A DNA stretch of 58,646 bases, the filler included, from Jimgerdemannia flammicorona (taxonomy: Eukaryota): the NCBI GenBank assembly GCA_003990765.1. It is 2 parts of 2 records of this genome, joined end to end, with 100 filler letters (N's around TTAATTAATTAA, not from the genome) between each part and the next. Parts side by side here need not be neighbours in the genome. Positions count along the whole stretch, not along the records: positions 29,376 to 58,646 come from RBNJ01000509.1; 1 more part is not named here. One strand, given 5' to 3'. The notes under the pieces are model-generated. The model worked only from the letters and a program-made list of their open reading frames with translations, made no database searches and was not told where the DNA came from. The translations under genes and the position numbers were made by a program. Shown here piece by piece: positions 117 through 41,048 of the stretch; the stretch's first letter is position 1, and every line of letters begins with the position of its first letter.

Positions 117-3100
117 TTATATTATGATAACAACCTTCTTGTTCTGTAACTTTGCAAGGAGGGCCTTGTCGCCGATCCCGTTTCCTGAGGAGGAGCGAGC
201 ACGCACAGATCGTGAGCCGCAAAACCATTGGTTCTTCCACCCCACCCCACCCCGGTTTGCGGACCCGCATAACATACCTCGGAGATCCAGCTGGGTCAAG
301 ATCGTGTTCTGCTTCAAAGAATCGGCAAGGGCGGCGGCCCCTTCGTCGCCGATTCTGTTCACTGGGGAGAAGGAATGAGCACTCACATATCGTGAGCCGG
401 ATGCCCCGTCAACCATTGGTTCCCTCACCCGACCCTCCCCCCGGTTTGTGGATCGGCATATATACCTTGGAGATCCAGCTGGATCAAGGTCGTGTTCCGC
501 TTTAGAGAATCGGCAAGTGCGGCGGCCCCCTTGTCGTTGATTCCGTTGTCTGAGGAGGAGAGGAGCGAGGACGCACAGATTGTGAAACGGATGTTCGCCG
601 CCAACCAATGGTTCCCCACCCACCCCTGGTTTGTGGTACGGTATGCATACCTCGGAGATTCAGCTGGGTCAAGGTTGTGTTCTGCTTCAGAGAGTCGGCA
701 AGGGCAGCGGCCCCCTCTTTGCCGATTCTGTTCCCTGATGATGAGGAAGAGCGAGCACGCACAGATCGTGAGCCGCCAACTATGGTTCGTCCACCCCACC
801 CTACGGCTTGCGGACCAGCATACATACATTCGAGATCCAGCTGAGTCAAGGTTGTGTTCTGCTTCAGAGAATCGGCAAGAGCGGTGGCTCCCTTGTCGCC
901 GATTCCGTTCCCTAAGGAGGAGGAGGAGGAGCACGCACATATCATGAGCTGCCAATCATTGGTCCCACACTTCACCCCCTCCCCCCGTTTGTGGACCGGC
1001 ATGACATACTTCGGAGACACAATTGGGTCAAGGTCGTGTTCTGCTTCAGAGAATCGGCAAGAGCGGCGGCTCCCTCGTGGCCGATTCCGTTAGCTGAGGA
1101 GGAAGACGCACAGGTGGTGAGCCACCGCTAATCATTTATTCCCCACCCTGGTTTGTGAGCCGGCATACATACATCGGAGATCCAGCTGAGTCAAGGTCGT
1201 GTTCTGCTTCAGAGAATCGGCAAGAGCTGCAGCCCCCTCGTGGCCGATTCCGTTGGCTGAGGGTGGGAAGGAGGAGCGAGCACGGCCAGGTCGTAAGCCG
1301 GATGCCCGCCACTAACCATTGGTCCTCCACTACACCCTCCTCCACGCATAAATACCTCGGAGATCCAGCTGGATTAAGGTTGTGTCTTGTTTCAAAAGAT
1401 TGGCAAGGATAGTGGCTCCCTCGTCTCCGATTCCTTTGGCTGAGGAAGAGGAGCGAGCACGCACAGATCGTAAGCCGGGTACCCACCGCCAACCTTTGGT
1501 TCCCCCGGTTACGGACCGACATACATACCTCGGAGATCCAGCTCGGTCAAGATCGTGAACTTCTTCAGAGAATCGGCAAAAGCGGCGGCCCCCTCGCCGC
1601 CGGTTCCTTTCCCTGAAGAGGAGAACGAGTAGGCATTGATTGTGAGCCGAATACCCGCCGCCAATCATTGGTTCTCCCACTCCACTCCCACCTCAGGTTT
1701 GTGGACCGGCATACATACATCGGAGATCCAGCTGGGTCAAGGCCGTGTTCTGCTTCAGAGAATCTGCAAGGGCGGCGGTCCCCTCGTCGCTAATTCCATT
1801 CTCTGATGGTGATAAAGAGGAGCACGCACAAATCGTGAGTCGGATGGCCCCCGCCAACCATTGGTTTCCCCCTCGGTTTGTGGACAGGCATACATACCTC
1901 GGAGATCCAGCTGGGTCAAGGTCGAGTTCCGTTTTAGAGAATCAGCAAGAGCGGCAGCCCCCTCGTCGCCGATTCTATTCACTAAGGAGGAAGAGCGAGC
2001 ACAACAGATTGTGAGCCGGATGCCCGCCTTCAACAATTAGTTCTCCCACCTTCCCGCTGTTTGTGGACTGGCATACATACATCGGAGATCCAGCTTGGTT
2101 AAGGTCGTGTTCTGCTTCAGAGAATCGGCAAGGGCGGCGACCCCTTCATCGCCGATTCTGTTATCTGAGGAGCGCGCACAGATCGTGAGCCGGATGTTCG
2201 CCGCCAACCATTGGTTCCCCCATCCCCCGGTCTGTGGACCGTGATACATACCTCGTAGATCCAGCTGGATCAAAGCCGTGTTCTTCTTCAGGGAATCGGC
2301 AAGGGCGGCGGTACCCTCATTGCCGATTCTGTTCACTGAGGAGGCGGAGGAGGAGCAAGCACGCAGAGATCGTGAGTCGCCAACCTTTGGTTCCCCATCC
2401 TATCTCCCTTTGTGGATCAACATACATACATCGGAGAGCCAACTCTGTCAAGGTCGTGTTCTGCTTCAGAGAATCGGCAAGGGCGGCGGCCCCCTCGTCG
2501 CCTATTCCATTCCCTGATGAGAAAGAGAAGCGAGTACACACAGATCGTGAGCCGAATGCCCGCCGCTAATTATTGGTTCTCCCACCTCACGGTTTTACAT
2601 ACATTCAAGATCCAGGTGGGTCAAGGTCGTGTTCTGCTTCAGAGAATCGGCAAAGGCGGCGACCCCCTTGTCGCCGATTCCGTTGGCTGAAGAGGAAAAA
2701 GAGGGAGCACGCACAGGTCGTGAGTCGGATGCCCACTGTCAATCATTGGTTCCACCATCCTCCCCCGATTTGTGGACCGGTATACACATACATTGGAGAT
2801 TCAGCTGGGTCAAAGTCGTGTTCTGTTTCAGAGAATCAGCAAGGGCGGCGGCTCCCTGTTCGCAGATTCTGTTCACTGAGGAAGAGGAGGAGGAGCACGA
2901 ACAGATCGTGAGCCGCCCGCAACCAATCATTGGTGCCCCCATCCCACCTTGAACCAGTACTCATACCTCGAAGATCCAGCTGGGTCAAAGTCGTGTTCTG
3001 CTTAAGAGAATTAGCAAGGGTGGTGGCCCCCTCGTCGCCGATTTCATTCCCTGAGGAGGAGGAGCCAGCACGCACAGATCGTGAGCCGGATGCCCGCCGC

Positions 3101-5549
3101 CAACCATTGGTCCGCCAACCATTGATCCCCCATCCCACCCTTCACCGATATACACACATTCGAGATTTAGCTGAGTCAGAGTTGTGTTTTGCTTCAGAGA
3201 ATCGGCTAGGGCGACCATCCCTTTGTCGCCAATGCTGTTTTCTGAGGAGAAAGGACAGATTATGAACCGGATGCTCGCCGCCAACGATTGGTTCCCCCAC
3301 TCCACCCGGTTGTGAACCAACATACATACGTCGGAGATCCAACTGAGTCAAGGTCGTGTTCTGCTTCAGGGAATTAGCAAGGGCAACGGCCCCCTCGAAG
3401 CCGATTCTGTTCACTGAGAAGGAGCGAGCACGCACAGATCGTGGGTTGGATGCCCATTGGTTTTCGCACCCCATCTTCCCCTGGTGTGTGGACCGGCATA
3501 CATACCACCGAGATCCAGCTGTGTCAAGGTCGTGTTCAGCTTCAGAGACTCGGCTATGGTGCGGGCCAACAAAAGGCCGATTCCGTTATCTGAAAGGCAG
3601 ATTATGAGCTTAATGTCATCATGAGGTTTCTAATAACAATAGAAAATATTTGACATACTTCTGAGATTGAGCTTGGTCAGATTTGCGTTTTTCTTCAAAA
3701 AATCAGCTAGAATGCTTGTCGCTTTATCATTGATGCCTTTACCTTTACAAAGACCCAAGGAGGAAGAGGAAAAATTTAAGTACTTGGCTTTATGGCATAG
3801 CTGTAATAGATGATAATTCATTTCTCACGTACTTTCGAGATTCGCGTCAGTTAAGGTCACGCTCTGCAAAAGAAGCGCTTCCAGGGTGCGGACCCCTTCG
3901 TCGTTTGCTGAAAAAAAAAAAAAAAAATACGCCATTAGTATTTATGTTCTAATTGTCCATGGAAATGCTTTTGCTCAATGGTCAATGCAGTGCGGATATA
4001 CCTCTGAAATTTAGGTCGGCCAAGGTCGTATTTTGCTTCAAACAGTCGACCAAAGGGTGAGGCTCGTCAGGGCCAATGCTTTTCCCTAAATGTAAATGTT
4101 GACAAGTGCAAACTGAAATTATTGCTTTTGCTGAGATCATGACCTTAAGAATCAAATAACAAAAGAACATAAGTGTTCTACATGTAATAGTAAGGCATGC
4201 AAAGTATGTAGGTCAATTTTTTGCTATATACCTCGATCCGACTGAGCCTCCAGAGTAATAAGTGCCGTTCTCGAGATGATTTGCGTAAGCTCTTTTTGAC
4301 TGTAGAACATGCTCCAGTGTAATAACTACTTGGCGAGGAATCTGTAAAGTTAAAACTGACGCTGCTGGTACTTGAGTTCGGCTCTTGCTGATGGGTGGTT
4401 CGTCGTGCGACGATGAAGGATTGGGTTTCTGGCGAGAACGGCAGCGGTGTGATGGCAAGCGCTCCTAGAATTTGGTCTTCGTTGCTTGACTGCGGTGTCG
4501 AAGAAATTCGTGCTAAATTTGCTGCACACTCAAGCAACCGATTGTAAACTTCACAAGCGCTCGGTCGTTGGTCGGGGTCAAGATTCCAGCAGCTCTGGAT
4601 GACACTGTTGAATGCCGTTGGCGCACCGGGGATCACCTCTTCACGCAGTCCATCAAATTTTCTGACGGCAAACGATGCGAGGTCTTGTGGCGTGACACCG
4701 ACGATCAACTGCCACAGCAGCGTTCCCAAGCAGTAGACATCCGACTTCTGCGTGTATTGTAACTTAAAGGATTCCGGCGGCAGGTACCTCAACCGACCAT
4801 AGACACCATGTTCGGAGTTGGCGTCATCTACAGCTCGGCTAATTCCAACATCGATCAAGAGCGTGGTGTACGACTTGTGAAACACTACGTTACCTGGGTG
4901 GAGATCTCCATGGGTAAAGCCCATTTCGTGGAGACTGGCCAGGCGGCTGGCAAGTTTTGTGGAGTATGTTAAGGCAGTGTACCAATCACCATCACAGTCG
5001 CATGGCCGATTCTCAAGAGTACCCATATCAGCAAATTGCATAATCATCAGGTAATGTCCCGTCGAAGGATGCAATGTCAAACCAATGGCTTCCATTGTTG
5101 GAGCATTGTTTCCACAGCGACTCAAATAAACGTTCAACACCAGCTGCATTGATTATGTAAATATACAACAGTTATACTAAGATGTCATGTTGTGTAGAAA
5201 TACAAAGTGAGGCTTACAGTCGGGATCTCACCTCTTCAACCATCGTCTCTTTTAACTCTTTGGCGGCCACACGATTCGCCGTTTTAAATACAAAAAATTT
5301 TGCCTCGAAAACTTTGGCAAATCCTCCTTGAGCGAGTTGCGTAAATCCTTCAAGGTTGCTGCTAGGAATCCAGGCAAGGTATGGCTCCAGTTGCGGTACT
5401 TTCAAGGAGTTAAGACAGGCACGCAGCTCTTTGTCATATTTTTTAAATGCATTCTTCCATGTTAAGATGGACACCTTCTGGATGCTGTCCAGCTGGTGGA
5501 AGGGCTTGATTAGGGATAGGAGGTGGTGGAGGTGGTTTGGAGCAGACAT
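117..5549 (-). CDS. Multi-exon protein kinase + RI-like (NLRC3/ribonuclease-inhibitor-type) LRR array gene. Exons: 5232-5549 (start uncertain), 4232-5143, then LRR exons 4002-4085, 3833-3907, 3659-3742, 3506-3589, 3330-3413, 3158-3241, 2967-3050, 2792-2875, 2603-2686, 2430-2513, 2252-2335, 2081-2164, 1898-1981, 1719-1802, 1529-1612, 1356-1439, 1173-1256, 1010-1093, 828-911, 651-734, 466-549, 278-361 and terminal exon 117-184
   Basis: Kinase motifs GGFAKVF, VAAKEL, HGDLHPGN, DVG, YLPPE, KSDVYCLG and CWNLDPDQRP. A phase-0 GT..AG intron (5144-5231) joins the two kinase ORFs. Every LRR exon is flanked by AG (mostly YAG) and GT (mostly GTATGT) and encodes xNxIGDEGAAALADSLKQNTTLTQLDLx. No stop codon arises at any junction when the exons are joined in order. 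The kinase-to-LRR frame is unresolved (see findings). Confidence 0.85.
185..3600 (-). repeat. Tandem array of ~165-190-bp exon+intron units
   Basis: The introns as well as the exons are mutually similar (plus-strand GAGCACGCACAGATCGTGAGCCG...CAACCATTGGTTCCCC...GTTTGTGGACCGGCATACATAC), showing that whole units were duplicated. Confidence 0.9.
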
Positions 5550-6786
5550 AGAGAAGGAGTGGACATATCTAAGAATTCGTGTCCTTGACTAATAAGTACA
5601 CCCCTTGTGATAAAGATCTTGCCAATTATATCACTGATAAATGACAGGGGTGTCCAGGTGCGACATAGGGTATTCCGGACCTAAATTGCTGAGACACACT
5701 AACAGAGCGACTTTGCACCGGCATACATCATAAAACTACATCTTGTGCATTAAATGTATGGCATGGATACACAAATGTACGATACCGGTTGAGGTTGTGT
5801 AATGTACAACCTCGGCATGATACGTTAGAGTGATGCTATATCGGGATGGAACTCGGTCTTTCCACTTGATACATCGGTAGCCTTCAGCAGCTTGATACGC
5901 CGAGCTTGGTGACTTGATACGATGATGCGCCGGAATAGGCCTCGACGATACGTTGATTTGCCGGAATATTATACGGTGATGCGCTGGTGGAACCTCGGCA
6001 CCTGTTTTAGGAATGCGGCGGGTGTTCGTTTTTTGAGACAGGAGCCAACACCAAAATTCACGGGCGACTGGGAAAAGGGCCGAAGTAGCCTGAGGTAGCA
6101 CGAAGGTTCTTGTCGACCGGAATATACTGTTAATCATCGGTTCTGCGGTTAATTACCGTTCTGCGGTTTATTGTTGCTCCATTAGCGTCGTTCCACATTT
6201 CACGAATAATCGCCGCTTTGCGGTTAGTCGTCGTCGCCGTTGTGCGGTTAATCGTCGTTGTCACTCTATAGTAAATCATCGTTCGTGGTGTTCAGAACGG
6301 CGATATCATATTTACGAATTTCGCAAATCATATTTGTCCGATTGATCTGAACAATTCCCAAATAATCTTACGAGTAATCAGTATCGGATGCTTGTATTCA
6401 TTACACAGCCACACACAAGTAGGACAATAATAGCATAAGCGTATTTGCACATCATTTTTGGGCTGGTAGGGATGGACAAACTAGTTATCTGCGTGTGGGG
6501 TTGGTAACAGTATGCACTGCCGATCCATCTGAAATGTGCTAGACCACAATAGTAGATACCCTGAAGTAGATGAACTGAAAGTTAAGGTAGCTGCTGAGTG
6601 TAATAACACTTATTTCAACCCCTCTTGTATCCTTGGATAACTTGGGTAATAAGGTATTACTTAGGGACTTGACACACATATGTATGTCTCAAGAAGTTTT
6701 TCAATTGTTCTTTTACTTAGTAGTATTTACTAAGATTTGAGGAAGTACTGTTTTTTTGTAGCAGAATAAAGATGTTGCTCTTCTTT

Positions 6787-12706: not shown

Positions 12707-14504
12707 CCTTTTGACAAATTGGTATAGGTCTTCTTCTATCTTAGACCACTATATAGTTCTTCTTACTTTGTTATATATGTTGATTTCTTCTAAATGTCCT
12801 TGTTCATATACTTCCTTCATTACTTGATACTTCTTATGTTTGAATATTATAAGCTTTTCTCCTTTTCTGAGTATAGTGTTATCTAGTTCAAATTATTTTT
12901 AAGTCCAGTTGATAATGATAATAGTCTAGAGTTCAAGGTGGTTGGATATCTTCCACTACTCAAGATAGCTGATTAATCTATAGTATAGTTCCTTATTCAT
13001 ATTGAATAGTCTTGATGGGGGTGTTTTAGGATATCCTTGAGAGTGCATCAGTATTGGTATTGGTTCTTCCTAGGTAGTGCTTAATAGTATAGTTATATTC
13101 TTATAGCCTGTAGATCTATCTGATATATATTTCTTTGAGGTTCAGAGTGTGAAATAGCCAGGTAAAAGTAGAGTGATCTGTTTGAATAGTGAAGTGTTTT
13201 CTGGTTAGGTAGTAGTAGAACTTGTCTATTGCTCAAACTACTGCTAAGCATTCAAGCTTATATGACTTGTAGTTCTGTTCTACTTTATGGATACCTTGGC
13301 TTACATAGGAGATAACATATTTATGTCTATCTTTCTTCTAAGCTAGGACTGCTCTAAGTCCTATAGTACTTACATCTGTCTGCAGGATAAACTCTAGATT
13401 CCAATCTGGTCTTCTGAGAATGGGTACTTGGGTCAATCTGGTCTTGAGTTTATTGAAGGTTTCTTGACATTTCTTGATCTATTTGAATTTGATCTTCTTT
13501 TTCAGTAGCTCATAGATAGGTACTGCAATATTGGAGTATCCTTTGATGAATCTTCTATAGTAGGAGGCCAGTCCAAGGAAGGCATGGACTTCTATAGCTA
13601 TTCTAGATCTTGAGTAGGCTGCAATAGTCTCAATCTTCATAGAGTCTGTATGAATTCCAGTCTGGTTGATGATGTGTCCTAGATAGATGATCTCCTGAGC
13701 TACAAACTTGCATTTCTTAGGCTTGATGTAGAGGCCATGCTCCTTGAGCTTCTTGAGAGCTAGTTGTATGTAATTGATATATTCCTGTGTAGTATTACTG
13801 AAAATGATCATATCATCAATATAGACAAAGAGCCATTTTCCAATCTCATTACTGAAAACTCTATTAATCATTCACTAAAAACTTGCTGGAGCATTGTATA
13901 TTCCAAATGGTATTCACAGGTAGATATAGGTGGTATCATATATAATAAAGGCTAATTTCTCACTGATATCTTAAGTGAGACCAATCTGATGAAAGCCTGA
14001 GAATAGATCTAAGATGGTATAGTATTTGGCTTCACTTCTAAAAGTGGTAAGAATTTCTTAAATATTTGGCAAAGGCTGTCTATCCTTCTTGGTGATTGCA
14101 TTGAGCTTCCTGTAATCAATGTAGAGTCTTGGGGCAAACTCTCCAGGCTTACTTCCTTTCTTTAGGGCAAGGATAATGAGTGAAGCCCAGGGGCTGATAG
14201 CTTGCTTGATGATTCCAGCTTCTTTTATTTCCTTAAGTTCTGCTCACAGCTATTCTCTGGATACAGATGGTATAGGTCTGGCTTTTTGGTAGATAGGATT
14301 GATATTGTCAGTATCAACTTTATAGTAGTACTTGAGTTCTTGATTGTGGATATCTCAGAAGTCTGTAACAAGTACTCCTTTGTTCTGATACAGGATCTTG
14401 AGAAGTTGTTCTTCTAGGAGAAAGTTTTTTCTAATAATATATGTATACTTATTCTGGTCCTTGTCTTTCTTATGCTTGAGTTTGGTAATCTTGATAGCAG
14501 TATA

Positions 14505-14930
14505 GGCTCCTCTTTCAGTAGATCCAAAGCCTTGTTCTTCTCTCTTAATCTTGATAAGTTCAATGGCTTCAGGATCTTAGGCTTCTTGATTTTATAGATC
14601 AGTATCTGGCCAATCCTGTCATACTTCTTGACTTTGAATGGAGTGGTGGGATTGTAATTCCTAACTATGAGAAAGATCTCACCAGTGTAATCAGGGTCAA
14701 TTATTCCTCCTTCAACTGAGATTTTGCTTTTGGCCAGACTGCTTCTGGTCTTGATAATTCCAATATAGTTCTCTGGCAACTTGACTCCAATTTTAGTACC
14801 AAGTAGAGTAGTGGTTTGTGGTTCAAGGATAGTATTTTGAATACTAGCAAGATCTATTCCTATGGCTCCTTCAGTCTTATATTCTAGAATCTTGGCTTTA
14901 GGGTAGAACTTCTTAACCTTGAGGATGATG
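14505..14930 (-). pseudogene. dUTPase domain within the Gypsy pol, upstream of RT
   Basis: Trimeric dUTPase motifs GAIGIDL, RSS, GIIDPDYTGEI and DRIGQ, plus a frameshifted motif 5 (EQGFGST). Confidence 0.9.
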
Positions 14931-16907
14931 TCTAGTTCTTGTTCCTTCTCATCATCACTGTCAGCTTAAAGCTCTGGGGGCTAGTCATCTTCTTTAGCTT
15001 TCCTTTTTGCTTCAGTAGCTTCTTACTTATACTTCTATTGGTAGATTTTCCTGACTTCACTGATATAGGACCAGTAGTCATTCAGGTGTTCAGAGCAGTA
15101 CATTCTGGTATCATGGGGGTATCTTTCTTATAGGGTACATATAGCCATTAATGATCTTATTGTATTACTGCTCATCTGTGAGCTTGAATATTTTATTCTT
15201 ATTCTTGTATACCAAATATATAAAGACTTCTGTATCCTCTTTATCTTCTTCCTCTATCTAGTAGTACTCCTTTGTGGACATTGATAGAGACTTATACCTT
15301 TCTTCCTCTATAGTTGATCTGCATCTTCTGAGCATTAAGGTCAATGATAGCCTTGGTCTTGTGAAGCCATTGGTTGCCAATAAGGATGTTATAGTTAGTA
15401 GTGCTTGTAACAATTATATTTACTGGGATAGTAGCTCCTCCTATCTTGATGGGTACTTCTCAGATCTTGCCTACTTGTATACCATCTACTATGATATAGA
15501 CCATCTTGATAGACTCTTCAATGTCCTAGCCTAGGCAGTCAATTGTCTTCATCAATGATGATATCAAAGATATAATCTTTAATCTAATATAGAATATAGG
15601 CTGATGTCTTGTACTGGTCTTCAGATTCTTTATCTGAGTCTTTGGATTCTTCTTGTATATTGTGAGCTTCTACAATCTTATACTCTTGATTCTTGACAAT
15701 GGTTGCAAGTCCTACTCTCAACTGCTATCTGAAGGTAGAAACTTTGGCTAGTTGTCCAAAAGTAGCATTGACCTTCTATTCCTTGAGGTCCTTGTAGATA
15801 TTATACTGGTGGATCTTGATCTTATATAGTTTTTATTCTTTCTTGCTTTCACTTTCTCCTGAGACTAGAGTAGTGCCTTCAATAATTTAGTAGATAGCTT
15901 CATCTAACTCTATGTCTTGATCAATCTTCTTGAGTTGGGTCTTGCTTTGAATAGTGATAGCTGGGGTCTTCTTTGGTCTTCCAACTGGCTTACTGTTGCC
16001 CTTCTTATCATAAGGCTTGGACTGTGTTCTGGTATCTTTAGTAACAGAGTAGAATTCATACTCCTCATAGTATTTTTTATCATCAGTGTCACTAATCTCC
16101 TCGATGACTACTGCATTAGTTTATTCTCTAGTTCCAGTAGTATTGCTGAATTGGACCTTGCATCTTATTTCAGTTATACAACTCTTTATATAGTGGCCTT
16201 CTTCTCTATATCTAAAGTATGTAATATTATATTCTTCTATAGTAACTGTAAATCTCTGTACTAGTCTCCTGTTGGCACTTCAGACTTCTCTAACAATATC
16301 ACTAAGGTGTGCAGTTATCTCAGTAAACTGCTTGATGAGTTCCTCCACTGAGTTAGCTTTGGCTATCTTGGGGGTAGGTGGGGATGGTTGTCTGTTTACA
16401 ACTATAGTAGGTATGATACTGATTGACTTTGATGGCTCTATCTTGATACCAGTTATTTTCTCCATTGAGTATTCAGCAGGATGTCTGGCAGTCCAATATC
16501 TCTGTGCAAAGACCACTTTCTGATCAAGAGTCAGAGCAGCTGAGATAGACCAGATTTCTCATTTTTTTCACTATATCTCCTAGGTGGGTAGTTATTTTGG
16601 TGAACTGTTTGGCAAGCTTCTCCATAGGGTCACTGTTTCTCTACTACTCTGTAGCTCTTGGCTAAGGTGTGTTTCAATTGATCATTATAGTAGGGATCAT
16701 GTTGATTGCCTTGGGTGCTTCAATTCTAACTCTAGTGACTCTTTTCATTGTATGGTCTTGTGAGTGTCTGGCTATCCAATATCACTGAGCATAGGTGACC
16801 TTCTATGGTAAATCCAGAACTATCATCTTTCTCCAGTAACATTCAGATTATACAATCTTTTGGCAACACTTTCGACACAGTTTCTGGAGACAAGCTACTA
16901 GTATCAT

Positions 16908-19900
16908 GGTGACCAATGAGCATCCTGAGGTGCATACTAGGCAGGGTGGCCCTGGAGCATTTGAATGGCAGCAAGTGGGGAGAGGCCCTGGCTTGGGGGG
17001 AAGCATGAGGGGCCTGCTGGTGGGAGGCCACAGTAGAGGAGGGGGTGGAGCTGGAGATCAAGGGTCTGGCAGAGCGAGCTTTGTGGAGAAGATGAAGGGG
17101 GGTCAGCAGGGAGCTGGACTGGAGAGCTGGCTGAGGGGGGGGAAGGTACTGGTGAGGGCTACCAGGCAGCAACCTCTTGGGGGTACCTCTCTAGAGGGCC
17201 ATAGGGGTGGAGCTGGGGGAGTAGTGGCTGGGGTGGGGACTGCTGATAGGGGTGTGATAGATGATCTGAAAAAAAATCTAGATGGGACTGCTGATGGTGA
17301 GCCAAGCAGTGGGAAGGGCACAAGGCCTGGGGACCTGGCAGATGGTGTAACAGGACTGGCAGTGGCTCCATTACTCAAGAAGTCAATCTCAGAATTTGCA
17401 GTCACAATGTGTTTCCAGAGCTTGGTGGTGATGGCAAAAATGGTCCTGGGGCTGATTGCGAAGCAGATGAGTGGGGCAGCATCGGTTAAGTTCCTGAAGG
17501 GCCTAGAAGGAGTAGAGGTGGGATTTGAGGAGGTTGGGCTACTGGAGGAGGCTTTGAAGGCTAGGATGAAAGTGGGCAAAATATGCATACTGATGGTGAG
17601 ATATCTGTGGTGGGACCCAAGAGTAGTGCAGCTTCTGGTGAAAGGAGTTCCCACTATTACTGCTGTAGAGATAAGGAAGAGAGTCAAGGAGATTATGGCA
17701 GAGTATGGGGAGGTAGTTGATATTGGGTTCAGAGTGTGAGAAGGAACCTCTCTCCAGACAGGGGATGTTGACATCAGGATCTGGCTGGCTAGACAGGAGG
17801 CTACTGGAAAGGCTCGGGACTGGCCCTCAGTGATGGTGTGGGGGGCTATCTTGTGCAAGGTGATGAGAGTAAAGGAGAGTAAGGAGGAGAAGGAGGATTT
17901 GCTGGAGGTGCTAGAAGAGTTGCATAGGATAGTTGAGAGGAGGGCGAAAGTATGGAAAGTATTTGAGGCAGCAATGCATCTTGAGGTGGTTGGAGGAAAG
18001 TGAGTCTGCATCAACAAGGAGGTGTGGGAGAGGTCCCAAGGGCATAGAAGGCAGAGGGAATTGTTAGCGAAAATGGGGGCAGAGGCGACAAGGAAGGCAG
18101 GCGATAGTGCAACTACCGGAGGTACTGAGGTGAGTGTCTGGGCTGCTAGTAGTGGATGGAATGAGGAGGGGGGGCAGGGGGAGGCCGTAAAGGTGCCGAG
18201 CAAGAGTCCATATGAGGATGGCACACTGGAGGTTTGGGAGGAAACCTGGAAGGATTCACCTTCACCCTCCCCCCTTATCAGAAGGGGTCTGGCAGTGAGA
18301 GGTAGAGTGGTGGAGGATGTGCCAATGCGCAGTGCTCAGCAGGTGCACTTTGGAGTTCTAAATGTAGAGAAGGGGGGATTGGTAGAGGTGACTGGGGAAG
18401 AGGAATTGGTAGATGTCCTGGAGGAGGGATAGAATGAGTCAGCAAGTATGGGGGCTGATACTATGATGTTGGATGGAGGGAGGCCAGTGACCCCAGGAGG
18501 GAAGAAGGTAGGAAACTTGCTCTGGGTATACCAGATGATAAACAACTTGGCAGTAGAAGAGCTGGGGGAAGTCGACCTTCGAGTGATGAGCAATGAGCAT
18601 TGGGTGAGAATCCTGCAAGGTGATGGAGTAGAGGTGGCATTGAAGGTGGAGATCCTGGTGGTGTACTTGGAGGAGGAGGGGTATAAGGTAGATAAGAAGA
18701 GGAAAGCTGTGCTGGCAATTGTGGCGGGTAAGCGGGCTGCCCACTGTTGGACTAAGAGGCATGGGCTGTAGCTCTGGCAGGAGGCTTGTTTGGAATATCA
18801 CGAGGAGTTTGAGGAAAAGGAGGATGGGTAGATGGCTGAAATCCTGGCTGAATTGGAGGCCAAGAGAATCGAGGAAGCTGAAGCTACTGCTGAGTGCAAC
18901 CTGGATAGAGTACAGGAGGAAGTGGACATGGAGCAGTAGAGGACATATCTGAAACTATATAATTTCTCTTATGAATAGTACAACTAACATTTTTTCTTTG
19001 AACATGAATGGGTTACAGGATGCTTATCAATATAAGAACATTTTTACTTGGCTGAAGGAATTGGAGGCTGATCTCTTCCTCTTGCAGGATGTCAGGTATG
19101 AGGATGACTTGGATAGACTGGAATGGATGAAGGAGTGGGGAGGTGAGGCAGTTTGGAAGGGCAAGGTTGGAATTCTGGTATGGAAGGGCAGAGGGGAGAT
19201 ACAGGATATGCAGAGCTGGGGGGATAGATTGGTCTGGGGAGAGTGGATACATGCAGATTGGGAGCCAGTCATGGTGGGCTCCTGTTACTGCCCTGTGGTA
19301 TGAGGCAAGCAGGTGAACTGGGTGATGGGCCTACAGGAGAGTGGGATTCTTGTGGAGGTTGGGGTAGATGTGTTGGGTGGGGACTTCAATATGGTCCGAG
19401 ACATATTGAGGGATAGAACTAATGGAGGACGAGGTGCTGTGGGGTGGAGTGGAGGACTGGCAGTATGGGAGGAAGTGGAGAGACTTAGTGCTCTGGTGGA
19501 TGTGGGTAGGGAATGTTGGGGGAATAGGAAGGTGTATACACACTGGGCTGGGGGTCTGGGGACAAGGATTGATTGGATTCTGATGGCCAGCTGCTGGGGC
19601 CTGGATGTTTGGAAGTCACTAGAGATGGAATGGTGTCCTTGGTCAGATCATTGGGGGCTTTTGGGGCAGGGACATTTTGGGGGGAGTGGGGATGGACCCA
19701 GACATTGGCGTCTCAATTCCTCCCTACTAGATGATAAGATCTGGTGAGGTAAATGGGCCAAAGTCATTCAAATGCAGGTGGAGTGCTGGAGGCAGGAAGG
19801 TGTCACAGTTGATATTCAGTGGATGAGGATGAAGGAGATGGCTAGGGCCTTCTGGAGTGAGGCTGGTATGGAGGCAGAGAGACAGAGGAGGCAGTGGGTG

Positions 19901-22503
19901 CAGTGGGCATCTCATAGACTATCTAGACTCTTGGAGGACTGGGCAAGACTAGCGATATTGGAGGGAGAGGAGGACTGGCATTCGATAAGGTTCCAAATGG
20001 AGGTGGCTGAACTACAACAGGTGCTGCAGAATGAGGAGGAGGCTAGGGTCCAGGGTCTGGCAGTATGGCTTCGTTGGCAGGGACTGGAGGAAGGAGAGTG
20101 GCCCTTGAAGTTTCTTATGAGGGCCCTTCAGGCAAGAAGAGTACAGCAAAGATGGGAGGGGGTGCTTAATGCTGATGGTTCATTGGTGCATGGGGTACAA
20201 GACATTCTTGGCTCGTTAAAGGAGTATTGGAGTAGATTGTGGAGTAAGGAGGAGGGTGGGGCAGGTGCTGAGGACATTGATCAAGTCTTGGAGGATTGGC
20301 ACGCTACCTGAGCAGCTGGGTTGGATGACTTAGTACTGCCAGTGCTAGAGGAGGAGATCCACCAGGTTCTTGCCATGACAACCTTGGGTATGGTGCCTGG
20401 AGAGGATGGTCTGTCCTGGGACTTCTGGAAAAGGATGGTGGGAGTCCCTGAAATAGTGGGAGAGATGAGGGCACTGTGTGATTGGATTCTACAGATGGGG
20501 AGATGGGTGGGAGAACAGGACCTAGGGTTAGTGACATTGCTTTATAAAAACAAAGGAAGCCGAGAGGACTGGAAGAACTAGAGGCCAATTATGCTACTGG
20601 ATATGGACAGAAAGTTGGTTACCAAAGTGGTGGTTGCAAGGTTGCAAAAGGTGGCCCAGCAAGTCTTGGGTGAGGAGCAGTGAGGCTTTGTTGGAGGCCA
20701 GCTCATCAGGGATAGTACAGCATGGGTACATGGCATTATTGAAGAGGTGCGAGCCAGTGGACTAGATGGGCATCTGGTCTTTTTGGACCAGAAGAAGGCC
20801 TATGACTGAGTGTGACAGATCTGGTTGGCAAAAGTTTTGGATAGGATTGGGATCCCACAACAGTTCAGAACTGCTATGGTCAGTCTACTGGAAGGAAGTA
20901 GGGTAGCACTCATGTATAATGGACATAGAGGGGTAGTATGTATTTCTCCTGGGTAGGGGGGTGCTCCAGGGGGATCCACTGTCCCCCATTTTGTATGCTT
21001 TGTCTCTGGAGCCCTTTATGGACAGAATAAGGCAGAAGATAGTAGAGCTCTCTATCTTTGGCATTGGGTGGAAAGTAGGAGCATTTGCAGATGATATGGT
21101 GGTCGGTCTGAGATCAGTTGCAGATATTGAGGAGCTCAAGAAGACAGTGGAGTGGTATAAGGCAAACTCTGGGGCTAGGCTTAATTAGCATAAGTGCAAA
21201 ACAATGGTGTTAGGCAATGGTCTAGCAGGCAGGGAGATTATTGGTATGATTGTCCCTACTGGTGAGGCAGTACAGTACTTGGGTATCTATCTGTCAGTGT
21301 ATGGGTCGGTTCTGCCTAGACTTTGGTGGGAGCAGTGGGTTGGCATTTGAGAGGAGGCCCTAAGGAGTTGGAGGGGCCGCCAATTGTCTCTGATGGGCCA
21401 CATTTCGATTCTGAATGTCTATTGGCTGCCAAAGGTGTGGTATCTGCCTTATTATCTAAACTTCCCAGCTTGGGTGGTGAAGCGATTGATGAAGCTGGCC
21501 AAGGGGTGGATCTGGGCTGGAAGGTAGAGTCAGATCAACTGGGAGGTCTTGTCCTTGCCAGTGGCAAGTAGGGGACTTGGGCTGGTTGACTTTCCTAAGA
21601 GGCTACACTGCTTGAGAGCTTGGTGGCTGAAGAGAGCAGTAGAGTTAAGAGGGGGTGGTTGGGTTCCCCTACTGCAGAAATTCTGGGAGATGAGGTCCTC
21701 TCTGAGAGGTTCGATGGGTGATCTCCTAGCACTTGTGGGCCTTCAGAACTCTGGGCAATTATGGTACAAAGACTTCTGGTGGGGAGTGGCAGAGGGAGCC
21801 TGCCGCATTGGGATTAGGTGGTAGAGAAATGAAGGGGAGGAGGCTTGGGACTGGGCGATGTGGAGATGGGACCGAGTGATACTGGGTGGCATTCCCTTAC
21901 TTGAGTTTGACATTGGTGATAGGATTGAATGCCAACGGGGACTAGGCCAGGATCTGTGGCCTAGTAGTTGGCAGGGTGTAGGAATTGGTGAGGAGTGGGA
22001 CTGGTATAGCATATGGGCCTGGAGTGCCAAGGTGAGAAGGTGGTTGCTGCTAAAGTACTGGGTGGTCTGGTGGTATGTGCTGAGGCGAAATGTCATGCTC
22101 AACTTCCGCTCTAGTCACCTTATTGAGGGGGGCTGCTTTGACTGTGAAGAGTATTATAATGTAGGACATATGTACAGACGCCTGAACATTGGCTAGGAGA
22201 GTGTGAGGTGCTTAGTTCCTTTTGGCAGAACATTGGGGATCATCTGGAAGTGGTGTGCAGGAGAGCTGATGTGTGGGGGTGATGGGAGGACTTAAGGAGT
22301 AGACTAGAGGGGGGGGTGGGGAAGGAATGGCTGACATTAGGGTAGGTATTGGCCATTTGGATGGGGCTGGCCAGTCACTGGCTATTTGTTTTTGAGGATA
22401 GGAGGAAACTTGGCTCCGAGGCCAGGCTGATGAGGTGGCATAGCTTTATGGAAGACACCTTGACAGGCTAGTGGCTGGGTTGGGGGTTGAGAGGGGGTCA
22501 AAG
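16908..22503 (+). mobile_element. Degenerate non-LTR retrotransposon (L1/Tx1-like: ORF1 ~16908-18950; ORF2 from 18971 with APE endonuclease, RT and a C-terminal Cys motif)
   Basis: APE motifs SLNMNGL, GGDFN, TRIDWI and SDH. RT motifs PGEDGL, FLDQKKAYD, QGDPLSP and FADD. It interrupts the Gypsy gag and is flanked by GTATCAT (16901-16907, 22504-22510). Confidence 0.92.
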
Positions 22504-29275: not shown

Positions 29276-29375
29276 NNNNNNNNNNNNNNNNNNNNNNNNN
29301 NNNNNNNNNNNNNNNNNNNTTAATTAATTAANNNNNNNNNNNNNNNNNNNNNNNNNNNNNNNNNNNNNNNNNNNN
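29276..29375. other. Artificial contig-joining spacer
   Basis: 44 N + TTAATTAATTAA (stops in all six frames) + 44 N = exactly 100 bp. Confidence 0.95.
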
Positions 29376-32869: not shown

Positions 32870-35800
32870 CATTGTTACCCCCGGCCCCGGGGCAAGCGCC
32901 TAGCGCCGCAGCGCGGCGCTGAGCGCAATAATTGCTTAAGCAATAAAAGCGCCTAGCGCCTTGTTTTATTAATAAAACAGGGTATATACAATTATTGCTT
33001 AAGCAATAAAAGTATATACCGTCCCACGGGGCCGCCCGAAGGGCTTTAAATAAAACAGGATATAAAGGGGGCTACCCTCAAAAGAGGGAAATGGACTATA
33101 TCTTAACCTATTTTCTACCTCTGTGAATTGCATAATTAATCCAATTTAAATTTTCGGATAATATACAATTGTTTAAACACCCGAGAGGTTCTAATATAGT
33201 TGGAAACAGTACGATCGCTAACACCTAATCATTTAGAGCATTCTACATTAGAAGAAAACTGCTGAACTAAAACACCATCCAGAGTGTATACGCCAACCGC
33301 TTGAGCATTTACTGCGATTGCGCCGAACATGGGGTTTCTAGATCCGGCTAAGGCCGCACTCATTTTCGCCCGAGTGTCGTCTGAATTTGTTTTCCCGTGC
33401 ATTGGGTGGTTTTCTGGGGGGATCGACGCGTGTTTTAGCGCTTTAGCCGCTAGAGTGTTTTACCCCCAATGTAGAGCCAGCAGTAGGAGAGAAGTTGTAG
33501 CGAAGGATTTTGGGGTAATGCAAAGAGCCAATTGAGTCAATGTTGCTCTCCCCCTTCGGGGAGTGATACATAATTAGAAGGCTAACTAGCCCGACAGGGT
33601 GGGTCTCGGCCCTGGAGGGTGAGGCCCTCCGGGCCTAGCCAAATTCTACCACGATAAATACAAAAGCTGGAAGGCCATAAAGAGCGATAGCGTGTTGTAG
33701 ATTCCGATTAGAACTATAATTAAGAATGTGAGATACCAGTCGTTTTTTGTTTTTTTGGCTGGCAGACGTAGTTTGCCTCCAGCCAAAAAAAAAAAAACCC
33801 ATATCAACTGAACCCCGAATAGAAAACGTATCGGCAAATTGCACCTGTCTCTTGACATTTAATGCAATAAACGCCACATTGATGTGAAAGAGTATCTTTT
33901 GCAAGTTTTAATCCTTCCGAAAGATGTAGATTGGAAAATTCCATAAGGGTAAATCGTCTGTTCCTTCGCATAAAAGAACACTGCCGAAAATAAGGATAAT
34001 TAGTGTATAAATTAATAGAAATAAGAGTCGATAAATCATAATTGAATAACATAATGGGGGATTAATAGTTGGAATAATCCCTGTTGAATAGGTTTTACAC
34101 GCCTCGGGCAGCAAGCGTCTAGCGCCGTGTGCCGAGGCCCCGAGGGCTGACCAATACTGAGTTGTGCTGTTTTTTTTTGCTGGCAGACGTAGTTTGCCTC
34201 CAGCAAAAAAAAAACGAGGGTCAGTAGAGGAGATCCAAGCGGAATAATCCCCGTAGTGTAGTGCCGTAAAGCTGCACGACAACGCGAGTGTCCAGTAATA
34301 ATCATTCCATTAGGAAACTGAACACTATGGTAGTATAACCATCCTAGAGGATGGAGACTAACCATTGATACTGGAAGAGATTGAGTGTAATTATTCATTA
34401 TATTATATGTGTTGGGATCCCTTAGATGAAGAATTGGTAGAGCCGTTTAATTTAGCCATAAATAGATATAGATATGGTAAACGTAATACCCAGGCTCCAT
34501 GAGTATTTACCTAAATTCCTTTAGTGGACCTAGTTAGGCTACTCTACAAGCAATTAAGAATGAAGACAGCACACCTTCCAAGTATAACTAAATTGGTAGC
34601 ATAACTTCCGGGAGGCAAGCGACTAGCGCCGTCTCTCCCGGAAGGCCGCAACAGGGAATGCCTTAATAGCCAACATCAGTCTAGCAAAAGAGAAAAAATA
34701 TTCTCTCTCTTATATCTCAAAATTCTCTCTCCTATAAATCAAATTTTCGTTCTCTTATTAATTATAAACAACGGGATTTTTTATAGCTCGGATATCATCT
34801 AACCCTTGTTGTGTAAGATGGGCTCGAGCTTCCAACATAGCATGAACACGATTGTAATCGGCATAATCTAATGCCTTTTTAGTAAGAAGAGGATAAGTAT
34901 CAAGGAAAGGAAATAAGTACATAGCTAGTTCGCTCCGATCCCGAATTCGGTATTGTAGCTGAGTAGGAGATTCATTGACCACATAGCCGCAGCCAAAGAA
35001 CGCAATAAATTTTTCAACGCATTAATAATCGGTCGCGAATGTGTTGACCCCCGGGGCCCCCTGGAGGGACGGCGCTATTACAATTTTTTATAAATAAAAA
35101 ATTAGAAAACCAAGGCGCTAGTCCCAAGGGGACTCACCCCTCCCCGTAGCCGGGTCTCAGGGACGAGCGCCGCTCTGCGGGGCTAGACGCTTTTATTGCT
35201 TAAGCAATAATTGCGTTCAGCATCTTGTATAAATACAAGACGCTAGTCCCAAGGGGGACTCACCCCCGACGGGACAAGCCCCTCGGGGGCTAGACGCTTG
35301 CCCCCAGGGGGGAGATACAAAATTCTAATGAAACTTGATAACCTAGCTTCATAGTATTATTGACTGCCACACTTACATGAAAGCAGGCCTCTGCGTCGAT
35401 GAAACCCACTACCCAATACACTGGAAGAATAGCCGCACTATATAATAATCGAGTTAGCATAATAATAAGAAGGAAATATTTGAGGTAATAGGATTATAAT
35501 GATTCCTCTCTATTAACAAATAGAGAAAGATTTTAACTTTTCTACAGTATTAATTGTTAACAGCCAGGGATGTGCTATACCTTAAAATTGGCCTAACCCC
35601 CTGGGGGCAAGCGACTAGCGCCGTGCCGTTAGGCACGGTCGCATGGAGTGGGTGGTAAACCCCCCACTCCTAGCGCCGTGGTTTTTCTAAAAGAAAAAAC
35701 ACGGTCGCATGTAGCTTGCTTTTATTAAAGCAAGCGACTAGCGCCGTCCCTCCAGGGGGGCGAATAACACATACTTAAAGAGGAGAGGAATCAAAGAGGA

Positions 35801-36068: not shown

Positions 36069-36431
36069 ACCTAAGGATCGTTATAGTTACGACCGCTGTT
36101 AACTGGAGGTTCAATCGATACCAATAGTATCTTTTTTAACTTACCAGCACTGCTTTACGTTCACTTGAATCTAAGTGTAATTAAACCCAAACCCCTAAAA
36201 TAGACATTAAAATCTAAGATCGTAATGCCCAAAAGATTCGAATTTAATAGCTCGTCATTACTGTACGAGAACAGACTATGCCTTAAGTCCCAAATCTAAA
36301 ATATATAAAATAGATTTTCAATAAATATTATAATTAAATATTTATCGGTTAGAGGTAAATTATTTACATATAGTCGTTGAGGAGACCAATGGTTTCCTGC
36401 AAATAGCCCAACTAGTTCCAAATTATTATTC

Positions 36432-36539
36432 ACCCCGGGCAGCAAGCGACTAGCGCCGTGTTTTTGTCTAAAGACAAAAACACGGTCGCATGGAGTGGGT
36501 GGTAAACCCCCCACTCCTAGCGCCGTGTGCCCGGGGGCC
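36432..36539 (+). repeat. GC-rich double-hairpin element family A (copies 36622-36730, 37325-37430, 41745-41852; variants 35600-35760, 56235-56350)
   Basis: Near-identical CCCGGGCAGCAAGCGACTAGCGCCGTGTTTTTGTCTAAAGACAAAAACACGGTCGCATGGAGTGGGTGGTAAACCCCCCACTCCTAGCGCCGTGTGCCCG in unrelated AT-rich contexts. Confidence 0.95.
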
Positions 36540-36749
36540 GATTAGAATATTAAACTATAAGGGTGTTTTTGCATATAGTAAATTACGAAATATTAATAAA
36601 TAAAATATTAATTTATGTTTCACCTCGGGCAGCAAGCGACTAGCGCCGTGTTTTTGTCTAAAGACAAAAACACGGTCGCATGGAGTGGGTGGTAAACCCC
36701 CCACTCCTAGCGCCGTGTGCCCGAGGCCCCGGGGGTAGAATTGATTTTA

Positions 36750-38742
36750 ATCTGTCAATGGAGCGTCTTTCTTTGTATAAGGGAATTCTCGAGTTTTATT
36801 AGTATCTTGAGCCATAGCTTGAATCTTATTAAGCCCTTCAAGCGTTAAATGCTCATTCTTAGCTGTTAAACATAGTTTTACTGCAGCGCCCCGAGGGCGC
36901 AGCTCTCATTTCTACTACAGTTCTAAATGCGGTAAAATCCAATGACTTCTTAGTCAATAATTGATTTTGTTCAAAAAAGGGCACAATAGTAGCCTGAAGA
37001 TCTGTAATATTTTTAACCTCAAAATTATAACTATCTTTTTTATCACCAGAGTTATAAACATAACCACAGTTAAAAAATGCTCTAATCATATAAAGAAGTT
37101 TAATATCTTTAAAATTTTGAGTTACTTTAAAAACCATTGCAACTCGTTTTTTTAACCGCATTTTTTGATCAGCAATAACATTAAAATAAAAGCAACCTTC
37201 TCGGACTTTCCTGTAGCGTTTAGAGCAGTGAGAGGGTTGTTTGACATCAGTCAGTGGCCCCAAGTATATACCCCTGCGAGGTCTCTCTATTACAAATCAA
37301 CGAAATTAAGCTTTAAGCTTATAACCCCGGGCAGCAAGCGACTAGCGCCGTGTTTTTGTCTAAAGACAAAAACACGGTCGCATGGAGTGGGTGGTAAACC
37401 CCCCACTCCTAGCGCCGTGTGCCCGGGGGCCGCATTGAAGAATCCATATATTTGGCGACAAGAGATCGCAATAGGGGCATAGAGCCTTCTCGAATATAAA
37501 TACGATACTGACCTTGTCTAGGCTCTCGTAATGTACAATCGAGTGAATATCGAACCATTAGAACATTCATCAAAAGGACAACCTCCTGAATAGTAAAAGA
37601 ATCTGTACATAAAATTAACCCATGTCGCTGAACGGAACCATCGCAACAGATCCAGTGAGCAAGTGCCACTGGAGTAAGTAAATCAAAAATCTCTAGAGGA
37701 ACAGTCTTAACTCCATTAGGGTAAAATAAAGTATATAGTTCCGTAAAGCAAGGCAATGATCTAGTGAAAAACTCTAATGTAAACGTTTGAGTACCATGGG
37801 AGTTTCGGATTCTTGACCATGGCAAACTCTTACAATAGTGAGATAGACTAGAAAATACATGCCAAGAATACAAAAAATGCGCCAGAGACTGGCAGAATCC
37901 AAGTCGTGCATTCTTATTAGTTTTAGAAGCGAAAGTAAGCCAAGCGTCGCCCAGTAGTAGCCCAATAATTACTCCTTTTACATATGGTGTAAAATTCCCG
38001 GGGTGGCCGGAGGGCGACCAAGTCCGCCGGCCACCCCGGGACCGATCATCCAACCGCCTTAGAGAATTTGCTCAAACCCACTGATGAGGGTAAAATATCC
38101 GGTACTACCCTTAAAGTGGTCGCTTCGCAAATGGCAATGTTACCGAATAGTCCGGTAATTCATACATAAGCCAGTAAGGCTGTGAAACCGACTAACCAAC
38201 TCTTAAAATTAGAGAGAGATTTAATAAAACATTCCCCGCTACATTTCCATTGACATTCGGAAGGGCATTTCATAACACAACCATTAATACAAGCATCCGA
38301 CCTCCCGGGAGAGACGGCGCTAGACGCTTGCCTCCCGGGAGTTAGTACAATTTCTTGGACATTCTTGTTTACACCCCTCTTTGCAAACCATTCTACAGCT
38401 ATCAATGCTCCTACAAGGCTGTCCTGCATTACTAATTGGTACACAAGCCGCAAAAGAAACACTTACAAGAGCAATAATCTCCGGGCCATATGTAACACCT
38501 GGAGCTAAAAAAGTCTCATCAACAACCTTAGCCATTTCAATTGAACTAAGTTCATTAATACTACACAGAAAGAACTGTTTAATATGAGTTTGCCAGGACG
38601 AATAACCCTGAAAAATATCAGATAGCAGGGTAGTAAAGGAATCCGCAATTCCATCAAAGCTGCAAAAAATATTGTCATTAAATTGTAAACAAATTAATGA
38701 ACCAACAAAAATTCCTGTTGAAATGATCAGGGGTTTAATCAA
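36750..38742 (-). pseudogene. Composite homing endonuclease gene: hydrophobic leader + Cys-rich domain + LAGLIDADG, split by an inserted second (I-SceI-like) LAGLIDADG gene at ~37205-38180
   Basis: Outer gene: SWLVGFT (38182-38202) ... EGCFYF...FKVTQ...FFNCGYV...LLTKKSLDF...EHLTLEGLNKI. Inner gene: GVIIGLLLGDAWL and LTPVALAHWICCDG. Confidence 0.8.
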
Positions 38743-41048
38743 TGGGGATACTTGAAAAGGCTTACTATTATCTTTCTTTCGGAAATACCCTCCGATTCGG
38801 TTAGCAAAAAATTTTAGGTCCCCGGCCGGAAGGCGCCAGGCTAGCCCGGCCGGGGCATAGTAAAATAAATATTGGGATCCCTTAGATGAAGAATTGTTAA
38901 CCGGACATACGAAGGACGATATATATAGACAACAGCACTTGTTTCTGGTTTTTTTTTTTTCTAAGGGCGGACATGTGCCCGCAGAAAAACACTAAATCAA
39001 GTACAAGACCCATAAGGACCCGATACCGGCCATGTGGTTGGTCTTTAGACAGGGCGCAAGGTCCCTGTTAGCTGTTAAACATAGTTTTACTGCTGGGCCG
39101 AAGGCGCAGCTAACATATTTCAAATTGGGATTCCCTGCCTAGCCTTCCTGTAGAATATCGTGGTAGATAAGACTCCTCGGAGCAAACCCGTGCTATCTCT
39201 CCGGCGGATCGCCTATCCGATTGCTAGATACATAAATACAATGCACATCCACAGTTACTGGGGAAACCGGAATTCCCACACACGAATTGGGAAAACAGGA
39301 ATTTCAATACAACCGCGGTTGAAAGTTGAAAAGAAACGGTCGATAGCATTTCGTGACCTTCCCGCTAATCTAAAAATATAAAATATTTTTCAAAAATAAT
39401 ATATAATATTATTTTGGATTATCGTATGCCGTAGACCCTTTTAAGGCAAAGGTGTCCAAAAACCAAAAGAGGTTGATTATATAATAGTGCAACTTAGGTA
39501 AATATAATATTTTTTTTATTAATAATTTGGCCCTATGTGAGCAGGTATCAATCTTTATACATCCAGTTTCCTGTTAGCAAAGATCGGTGTTTGGAATAGG
39601 TAGGGGATCACTCCCTTTCCCCTCCTCAGAACCGTACGTGCGACTTTCACCGCATACGGCTCAAACATTAAGTTTGTAGTAATCAACCGGTATTAAGTAG
39701 TATCTTCTAGGCCTGCCGGCCTCTTGCCCCCCCCCCTTTAGGGGGGGGGGCTACCGCGGGCCGTCCCCCCCAGGGGAAGTGCTTTAATTAAAGCGATTAG
39801 CTGGGGGGAGGGGCCTTTCGGCGAATTAGTAATAATATATTTTCCTTTAAAAACCTTACCAGAACGAAGATAGTTAAAAACAGTCACACTACTGCACCCT
39901 AACCATTCTGCAGCGGCTAATTGCGAAGAAAAAGAATTAAGTAATTGGTTCTCAAGAGAATAAATATAAACTGCCTGAGCATTTTGCGCTACCTTACCAA
40001 ACAATGGATGTAATTCCCCTGTTCTCCCGTACATGGGATGATTTTCACCCGACATTGCAGCACTAATTGCGGCCTTTACCGCATCAGGAGTGGTTTTTCC
40101 ATTATTAGGATTATTAGAACGGATTTTAGCAGAAGAAATAGCCGCTTTAGCTGAATCCGAATGAGATAGCCCAGTAAAGGGAGCAGTAGTATTCTTAGCA
40201 ATATTATAAGGGGGTTTAAGAGAATCTAAAAGAAAAAACACGGTCGCATGTAGCTTGCTTTTATTAAAGCAAGCGACTAGCCCCCGAGGGGCTTGTCCCG
40301 TCGGGGGTGAGTCCCCCCTTGGGACTAGCGCTGTGGCGTAGGGCTTTAGCCCAAGGATACCAGCGCATGGGTCGTGTGCTATGGCACACGACTAGCGCTG
40401 TGGCGCTGTTATTTTATAAACTTACAGAGGCACGGGCGCATGTCGTGTGCCATGGCACACGACTAGCGCTGTGGCGCTACGCCTCTGGCGCTGGGATACC
40501 AGCGCATGGGGTTGTTTGTTTGTTTAAACAAACAACCTAGCGCCGTCCCTCCCGGGAGGCCACTAAGATCTATGCGTGCTCGAGGTATCCTGATGATACC
40601 CTTTCTTTTAAGGCGTTCAGTTCGTACTTTCATATTTCTAAATGTAAGAACAGAAACGCCATGCGCTTTATCATGAACTGTTCCAACATAATTAAAGAAA
40701 GCGTTAATTGCAACAAGTAAGAGTCTATCTAGTGTACTCTGAGTTATATTAAACTCACATTGAGGTACTAATCCCCATGTGGAATAAATCTCTGTGTAAA
40801 AAGAACTAGTCCCTCCCCGCATGGTCTCGGGGACTTACCCCGAAGGGACAAGCCCTGGGGCCGCTAGTGAAGCAACCTTCGCCTAAACAAACCCAAGAAG
40901 CCATGATGGGTATTTAATAATATAATCCAAATATGATTGGAAAGTTTGAAAATTTTTATTGTTCATGATGATATAAAATATACGGAGTAACCGTTCATAC
41001 CCTGAAAACCCCGGTCAGGGTTTATACCCCCTATAAAAGGTAGTTACT

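Follow-up and report, generated by a model that had tools for sequence, protein, structure and literature searches.

Homing endonucleases with a single LAGLIDADG motif, such as I-CreI and I-TnaI (Pfam PF00961), are described as homodimers in the accessible text of PMC3943268 and are encoded by open reading frames (ORFs) in group I introns of ribosomal RNA (rRNA) genes. The fungal mitochondrial enzymes of the I-OnuI family (I-OnuI, I-LtrI, I-PanMI and I-SmaMI) have two nuclease domains. Mobile nuclease ORFs inserted in genes are reported from related fungi (PMC3630166). Fusion of a LAGLIDADG-type nuclease to a cysteine (Cys)-rich domain is known from yeast HO and WHO, which are nuclear and intein-derived and carry a C-terminal finger with three to five CxxC motifs; HO cleavage needs its zinc finger and zinc, and the two are presented, in the accessible part of the report, as unlike any other homing endonucleases in this zinc finger-nuclease fusion (10.1101/2020.01.20.913210). 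Here, an enzyme with a different Cys-rich domain is described from a stretch of 58,646 nucleotides (nt) of Jimgerdemannia flammicorona (assembly GCA_003990765.1), hereafter the window, in which a group I intron of the mitochondrial rnl gene carries a decayed ORF for a single-motif LAGLIDADG nuclease preceded by a module of twelve Cys.

This locus resembles the I-CreI/I-TnaI type in its single LAGLIDADG domain, its place in an rRNA group I intron and its fold, and differs from it by the N-terminal 12-Cys module. Its best sequence and structure matches are I-OnuI, I-LtrI, I-PanMI and I-SmaMI, but the Cys module stands in place of the first of the two I-OnuI-type nuclease domains. With HO and WHO it shares the fusion as such; unlike them, it is mitochondrial and intron-encoded, has PF00961 as its only Pfam domain and no intein, and bears its module N-terminally with a Cx3C period. 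A preliminary description of this DNA had held that LAGLIDADG enzymes do not normally carry Cys-rich modules: HO and WHO are an exception. The kind of enzyme is known (single-motif LAGLIDADG, PF00961), while its accessory Cys domain, present in three lineages, is apparently undescribed.

The module and its intact relatives

The minus-strand frame 38320-38991 holds six Cys (codon starts 38415, 38397, 38385, 38373, 38361 and 38349), and the next minus-strand frame holds six more (38291, 38279, 38267, 38255, 38243 and 38231) followed by FIKSLSNFKSWLVGFT, which ends at 38181. The features concerned are the following.

38416..38742, minus strand: variable leader of the intron ORF, in a frame open from 38991 onwards, where TTG 38742 and ATG 38535 are the possible starts
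38341..38415, minus strand: first half of the Cys module (Cys1-6)
38298..38340, no strand assigned: dispersed GC hairpin element of 43 nt, its ends uncertain by a few nt, causing a frameshift and a stop at 38320-38322
38229..38297, minus strand: second half of the Cys module (Cys7-12)
38181..38228, minus strand: linker of constant length with the N-terminal portion of the LAGLIDADG helix, aligning without gaps to P0002 and P0003
36904..37200, minus strand: body of the LAGLIDADG_1 domain (PF00961, E 4e-18)

A search with the nuclease body (36901-37200) as query gave three proteins among 38 candidates, P0002, P0003 and P0004, the last being the public gene model of the locus (RUS34417.1). Both P0002, which forms a cluster of four with P0005-P0007, and P0003 are metagenomic and independent of each other; they are 81% and 75% identical to the window over the nuclease body, respectively, and carry the 12-Cys module without hairpin and in frame with a single-motif LAGLIDADG domain. 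The central proposal of the preliminary description, that the two Cys runs form one in-frame module fused to the nuclease and are parted by a GC hairpin of about 40 nt, is thus upheld: the hairpin is present (43 nt), the runs share one frame in the hairpin-free relatives instead of falling in different frames, and the relatives conserve the Cys spacing. The hairpin length of 43 nt was adopted because both relatives have four residues, with Asn second, between Cys6 and Cys7, from which the native spacer of the window copy would be T-N-D-A. The resulting spacing is 6,4,4,4,4,5,4,4,4,4,4, so that the expected Cys at every fourth residue is mostly observed but fails between Cys1 and Cys2 (6) and between Cys6 and Cys7 (5).

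In the alignment of the three lineages, the Cys columns are invariant (12/12, against 9/36 of the other columns), and eleven residues separate Cys12 from the helix Trp position in all three, with no indel. For locus L011, which encodes one of the P0002 cluster proteins, comparison with the window over 50 module codons, omitting four codons around a one-residue indel, gave proportions of synonymous (pS) and nonsynonymous (pN) differences of 0.61 and 0.26, a nonsynonymous to synonymous rate ratio (dN/dS) of 0.25 and a bootstrap fraction with pS<=pN of 0.0006. For the 38 non-Cys module codons alone, the values are marginal (pS 0.59, pN 0.35, fraction 0.039). No DNA tandem repeat was found in the module, nor does an internal duplication of its two halves reach significance once the Cys themselves are set aside (p 0.19-0.49). 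Among 200 mononucleotide shuffles of the mitochondrial part of the window, none contained a run of five Cys at i+4, and the five overlapping four-Cys runs in its six frames all lie at the module locus. The module is nearly certainly a genuine domain, fused to the nuclease and under selection. The ancestral product of this ORF, whose intron is inserted at rnl position L1837, is shown to be a single-motif LAGLIDADG protein with a conserved 12-Cys module of about 50 residues immediately before the first helix, preceded in turn by a freely variable leader.

The leaders differ in length and origin among the three lineages. That of P0003 starts with a segment matching the 5' end of nad2 and that of P0007 with a related segment, both hydrophobic, while the window leader shows no BLAST similarity to the P0003 leader beyond a few residues adjoining the module. 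Elsewhere in the assembly, on contig C17552 (locus L028, 517-1695, minus strand), the 5' part of nad2 continues without a frame change into a GIY-YIG ORF; it appears that the start of nad2 has been put to further use as an expression leader.

The module was sought well beyond these relatives. When the module region of the window itself served as query, a word search returned 79 candidates, none at E<=0.01, the relatives having emerged only via the nuclease half; a module-only word search among proteins of 98-2000 residues returned P0002 and P0003 alone (2/8 candidates). In a profile search of 1.84 billion representatives only P0002 carries the module among the 150 best matches, but the profile spanned 367 positions and the whole of P0003, so that the nuclease dominated the ranking and a module on other proteins is thus not excluded. 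No module was found in viral contigs, prokaryote genomes or phages, no match among the sequences of the PDB, and no second copy in the assembly, and a metagenome scan gave nine loci with the module only at L011. In the ESM Atlas, the best feature score was 0.80, at chance level and in unnamed clusters, with no usable named match, and Pfam and other family libraries gave sub-cutoff pattern matches only. Since fungal mitogenomes are thinly covered by the collections searched, this range is a lower bound. No description of the module was found in a literature search covering few subscription journals; it is apparently undescribed and matches no known protein family. It widens what homing endonucleases carry, being a selected Cys-rich domain that is unrelated to that of HO and WHO and sits on a single-motif enzyme of an organelle.

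The nuclease itself conforms to its family. PF00961 scores (cutoff 23.1 bits) are 66.5 for the window body, 81.9 for P0002 and 90.6 for P0003, and the AlphaFold2 model of P0002 has the LAGLIDADG fold, matching I-LtrI, I-OnuI and I-TnaI in Foldseek (I-TnaI 5gkk, TM 0.84 by target length). With 22 sequences, AlphaFold2 gave a predicted local distance difference test score (pLDDT) of ~90-98 for the nuclease and ~40-52, mostly coil, for the module; a two-sequence run was poor throughout and differed from the first in module secondary structure. Structure prediction, as the preliminary description had proposed, therefore recovers the nuclease and no confident fold for the module. Its further idea of Cys lining one helix face, as in a metal-binding helical bundle, is not supported: strict i+4 spacing drifts by 40 degrees per step and so by 200 degrees across six Cys, Pro, Gly, Asn and Ser are frequent in the spacers, and the pLDDT is low. 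Cys-lined four-helix metal bundles, as in Csp/DUF326, have Cys on one face of long helices; the module has no Pfam match to them and an unfavourable geometry, in models of too low confidence to exclude a bundle.

Candidate roles of the module

Structural disulfides are not expected in the mitochondrial matrix, and because the protein would be made there, its twelve thiols would most likely bind metal, Zn2+ first. In I-CreI-type structures, the LAGLIDADG helices have their N-termini close to the dimer axis, on the DNA-distal side. The reading tentatively preferred, with somewhat less than an even chance, is that of a putative structural metal-thiolate cap (Zn, possibly Fe-S) on a homodimeric nuclease. 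The nuclease would act as a homodimer and cut intron-less rnl alleles, driving homing; the module would form a metal-thiolate cluster rich in turns, with three Cys4 sites or two six-Cys halves; and, because the helix N-termini lie near the axis away from the DNA, a pair of modules would meet there and, as a cap, stabilise the dimer without reading bases. In favour of this reading are the intact in-frame fusions, the invariant Cys, the fixed distance to the helix, the absence of His from the module and, as a precedent, the need of HO for its zinc finger and zinc in cleavage (10.1101/2020.01.20.913210). The 50-residue domain, which has no family or fold match, could serve as a stabilising or switchable add-on for meganucleases.

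Several points weigh against this cap. The placement at the axis draws on the general geometry of I-CreI-type structures, and the module has neither a confident AlphaFold2 fold nor a match to solved structures in the PDB sequence search. It is less constrained than the nuclease body (dN/dS 0.25 against 0.06, the latter over 53 codons, window against L011), and there are three lineages only, with DNA for two, so that the selection estimate comes from one pair. Compared with the two-domain I-OnuI-type enzymes, the nuclease domain scores better with their second domain (97 bits) than with the first (54 bits) and is therefore possibly half an enzyme. A pseudo-palindromic exon junction (14/19 bp, a level reached by 2% of E. 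coli 23S positions) would favour a homodimer, but this signal is weak, being the best of six window lengths; it disappears at lengths of 20 and 22 bp, and rRNA pairing alone may account for it. Moreover, while the TDGEG motif is intact in P0003 and P0007, Tyr or Asn replaces the motif Asp in P0002, P0005 and P0006, and frameshifts occur in L011; members affected by decay or sequencing error are therefore frequent.

A redox or metal switch, in which the module would carry an Fe-S cluster or labile Cu/Zn and gate homing or maturase activity, is rather unlikely. Fe-S clusters are assembled in the mitochondrial matrix, and if spacings of 5-6 are tolerated, four non-overlapping CxxxCxxxC-type triplets fit into the module. 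With the same small chance, a mitochondrial homing endonuclease would be dependent on organellar metal or redox conditions through a hitherto undescribed metal cluster (Zn, Cu or Fe-S) of Cx3C period; the selfish element would then bring its own sensor, and metal-domain LAGLIDADG enzymes would have arisen a second time, independently of HO and WHO. Chloroplast TCR, which binds a [3Fe-4S] cluster, has two CxxxCxxxC motifs in the accessible account of PMC7848650, but the likeness is one of pattern only, with no family match, and no regulated homing endonuclease of the switch kind was found in literature searches.

An additional nucleic-acid-binding domain is unlikely, whether it would extend DNA recognition as in HO/WHO and I-TevI or act as a maturase arm that binds the intron RNA. 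MAT cleavage by HO requires residues of its zinc finger (10.1101/2020.01.20.913210, in part) and some intron-encoded LAGLIDADG proteins are maturases (PMC3943268, in part), yet the present module is not consistently basic. A short fixed linker also ties it to the helix end that faces away from the DNA. As to a maturase arm, the host intron splices in runs whose ORF carries lesions; the protein is therefore not needed in cis, which argues against an essential maturase role.

Equally unlikely is a captured passenger, for example a piece of a bacterial Cxxx-repeat radical-SAM target peptide or a C_tripleX-like repeat, kept only because unpaired Cys or misfolding would harm the nuclease. Such ORFs readily capture sequence, as the nad2 match of the P0003 leader illustrates, and the module shares Cys at every fourth residue with TCR (PMC7848650, in part), with the radical-SAM targets TIGR04114, TIGR04117 and TIGR04118 (E 0.013-0.033) and with PF02363 (C_tripleX; match in 1/4 members, E 0.13). 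All of these family matches lie below cutoffs, however (for the radical-SAM targets, the L011 module reaches 15.6 bits against 20 and 14.2 against 50), and are explained by the Cys period alone; unlike those families, the locus has no maturase gene or similar context. The capture of a foreign mini-domain, already raised in the preliminary description, found no donor among proteins >97 residues, viral contigs, prokaryote genomes, phages or family libraries. Besides, a passenger could be deleted, as leaders were remodelled, but module and linker are whole in three lineages.

It is very unlikely that leader and module serve the host or organelle apart from homing, as a membrane-tethered metal buffer made of a nad2-derived leader and a metallothionein-like cluster: the hydrophobic nad2-like leaders of P0003 and P0007 would suit it, but no relationship of the window leader to them could be detected, among proteins >97 residues the module is always accompanied by the nuclease, and it is broken in 4/4 runs. 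An artefact (chance, DNA tandem repeat or assembly error) is ruled out, since although low-complexity Cys patterns are easily over-read, the shuffles, the invariant Cys columns, the absence of a tandem repeat, the same sequence in four runs from four studies and intact relatives with synonymous divergence all oppose it.

Lesions of the window copy and the nested element

The window copy is a pseudogene with three lesions, a state that the preliminary description had overlooked, while its host intron still splices. Three insertions have removed the intact motif helix and open frame that P0003 and P0007 retain. Besides the hairpin, the features are the following.

37201..38180, minus strand: nested insert of ~980 nt in the catalytic helix, with structured flanks and its own LAGLIDADG_2 ORF at 37409-38071 (stop to stop)
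36861..36903, no strand assigned: second repeated element of ~43 nt, frameshifting the nuclease C-terminus; a similar copy lies near 39060-39110
36747..36860, minus strand: C-terminal helix and tail of the nuclease, ending in TAA and matching P0003 residues 330-364

The GC hairpin between the module halves has arms at 38302-38311 and 38332-38341 (-26.7 kcal/mol), and near-identical copies occur in the window at 34602 and 57625 and on other contigs. A search for hairpin-free alleles, proposed earlier, succeeded in the relatives and not at the locus itself, where none was found in four of 21 listed runs, the hairpin being spanned in place in 4/4. Two other hairpins near it are absent in some of the four.

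The module was thought to stand directly before the nuclease. The start of the helix, FIKSLSNFKSWLVGFT, does adjoin it, but the helix is interrupted after Thr (38181) and resumes ~980 nt further on at Glu 37200 (EGCFYFNV); by comparison with L011, the junction shows no recognisable Asp-Gly codons of the outer motif. The ORF that comes right after the module, of LAGLIDADG_2 type (PF03161, E 4.5e-50), is part of the different, nested element. P0004 is a chimera of this nested LAGLIDADG_2 and the outer LAGLIDADG_1 domain that misses the module, apparently built with nuclear splice rules.

The flanks of the nested insert are single-copy in the assembly. It has no Rfam intron match, and its ORF would split any ribozyme core. 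No contig joining 37200 to 38181 was found in the four runs, in contigs that drop rare forms. The arrangement recalls the nested, twintron-like mS1247 intron, in which, according to the accessible text of PMC8393795, an inner element interrupts the LAGLIDADG ORF of the outer intron; unlike that case, the inner element here is no recognisable group II intron and contains a LAGLIDADG_2 gene itself, and no splicing of it was observed.

By its position, the nested element occupies the most conserved codons of the outer nuclease, one nuclease gene being the parasite of another. Inspection of its flanks by eye allows group I-like pairings to be drawn, but there is no space for P9 ahead of the junction. 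Run X3 is without both GC hairpins of the nested ORF, which then begins, by hand reading, at its own ATG near 38049, and shows six clustered substitutions in the 5' flank that seemingly keep a stem in shifted register. The hairpin 37325-37431 is absent in X2 and X4, and sites at 38110-38122 and 37996-38044 also vary. From such presence and absence among X2, X3 and X4, insertions in the nested element are therefore polymorphic.

Host intron and genomic setting

The window joins two contigs of the assembly, 1-29275 being nuclear-looking (C508) and 29366-58646 mitochondrial (C509). The latter carries the rnl gene on the minus strand, with many group I and group II introns.

36153..39539, minus strand: host group I intron of mitochondrial rnl, 3387 nt, preceded by U and with G as last base
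36251-36651, minus strand: group I catalytic core of the host intron, behind the ORF, with a GC element inside and homologous to the L011 core

Contigs of runs X1 and X3, whose RNA status is a tool's guess, skip exactly 3387 nt, at depths of 5190 and 325, compared with ~100 and ~10 inside the intron. The insertion follows E. coli 23S position 1837 (L1837), as the flanking exons align to E. coli rrlH on both sides. In Rfam, the core is recognised as group I at E 4e-4, below the gathering score, and the homologous core behind the L011 ORF at E 5e-11. By the spliced joint and the core, the ORF lies within a spliced group I intron.

Over 29366-58646, rnl also contains intron ORFs of GIY-YIG/NUMOD and LAGLIDADG type, mostly broken by several GC hairpin families. 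A short stretch at 34400-34440 and 38860-38900 (minus strand) precedes several intron ORFs, also in L003, L004 and L007, and is possibly a mobile translation-start or promoter cassette. The N gap 29276-29365 links the nuclear-looking contig to the 29-kb mitochondrial one; because the mitochondrial part matches spliced high-depth contigs, this is probably mis-scaffolded mitochondrial DNA and not a nuclear insertion. On the nuclear-looking side, reading of the ORF list indicates a long leucine-rich-repeat micro-exon array adjoining a protein kinase gene (112-3700 and 4178-5588, minus strand) and, at 13479-14965 and 16840-22200, retroelement remains with a reverse transcriptase and dUTPase-like ORF and a LINE-like endonuclease/reverse transcriptase element.
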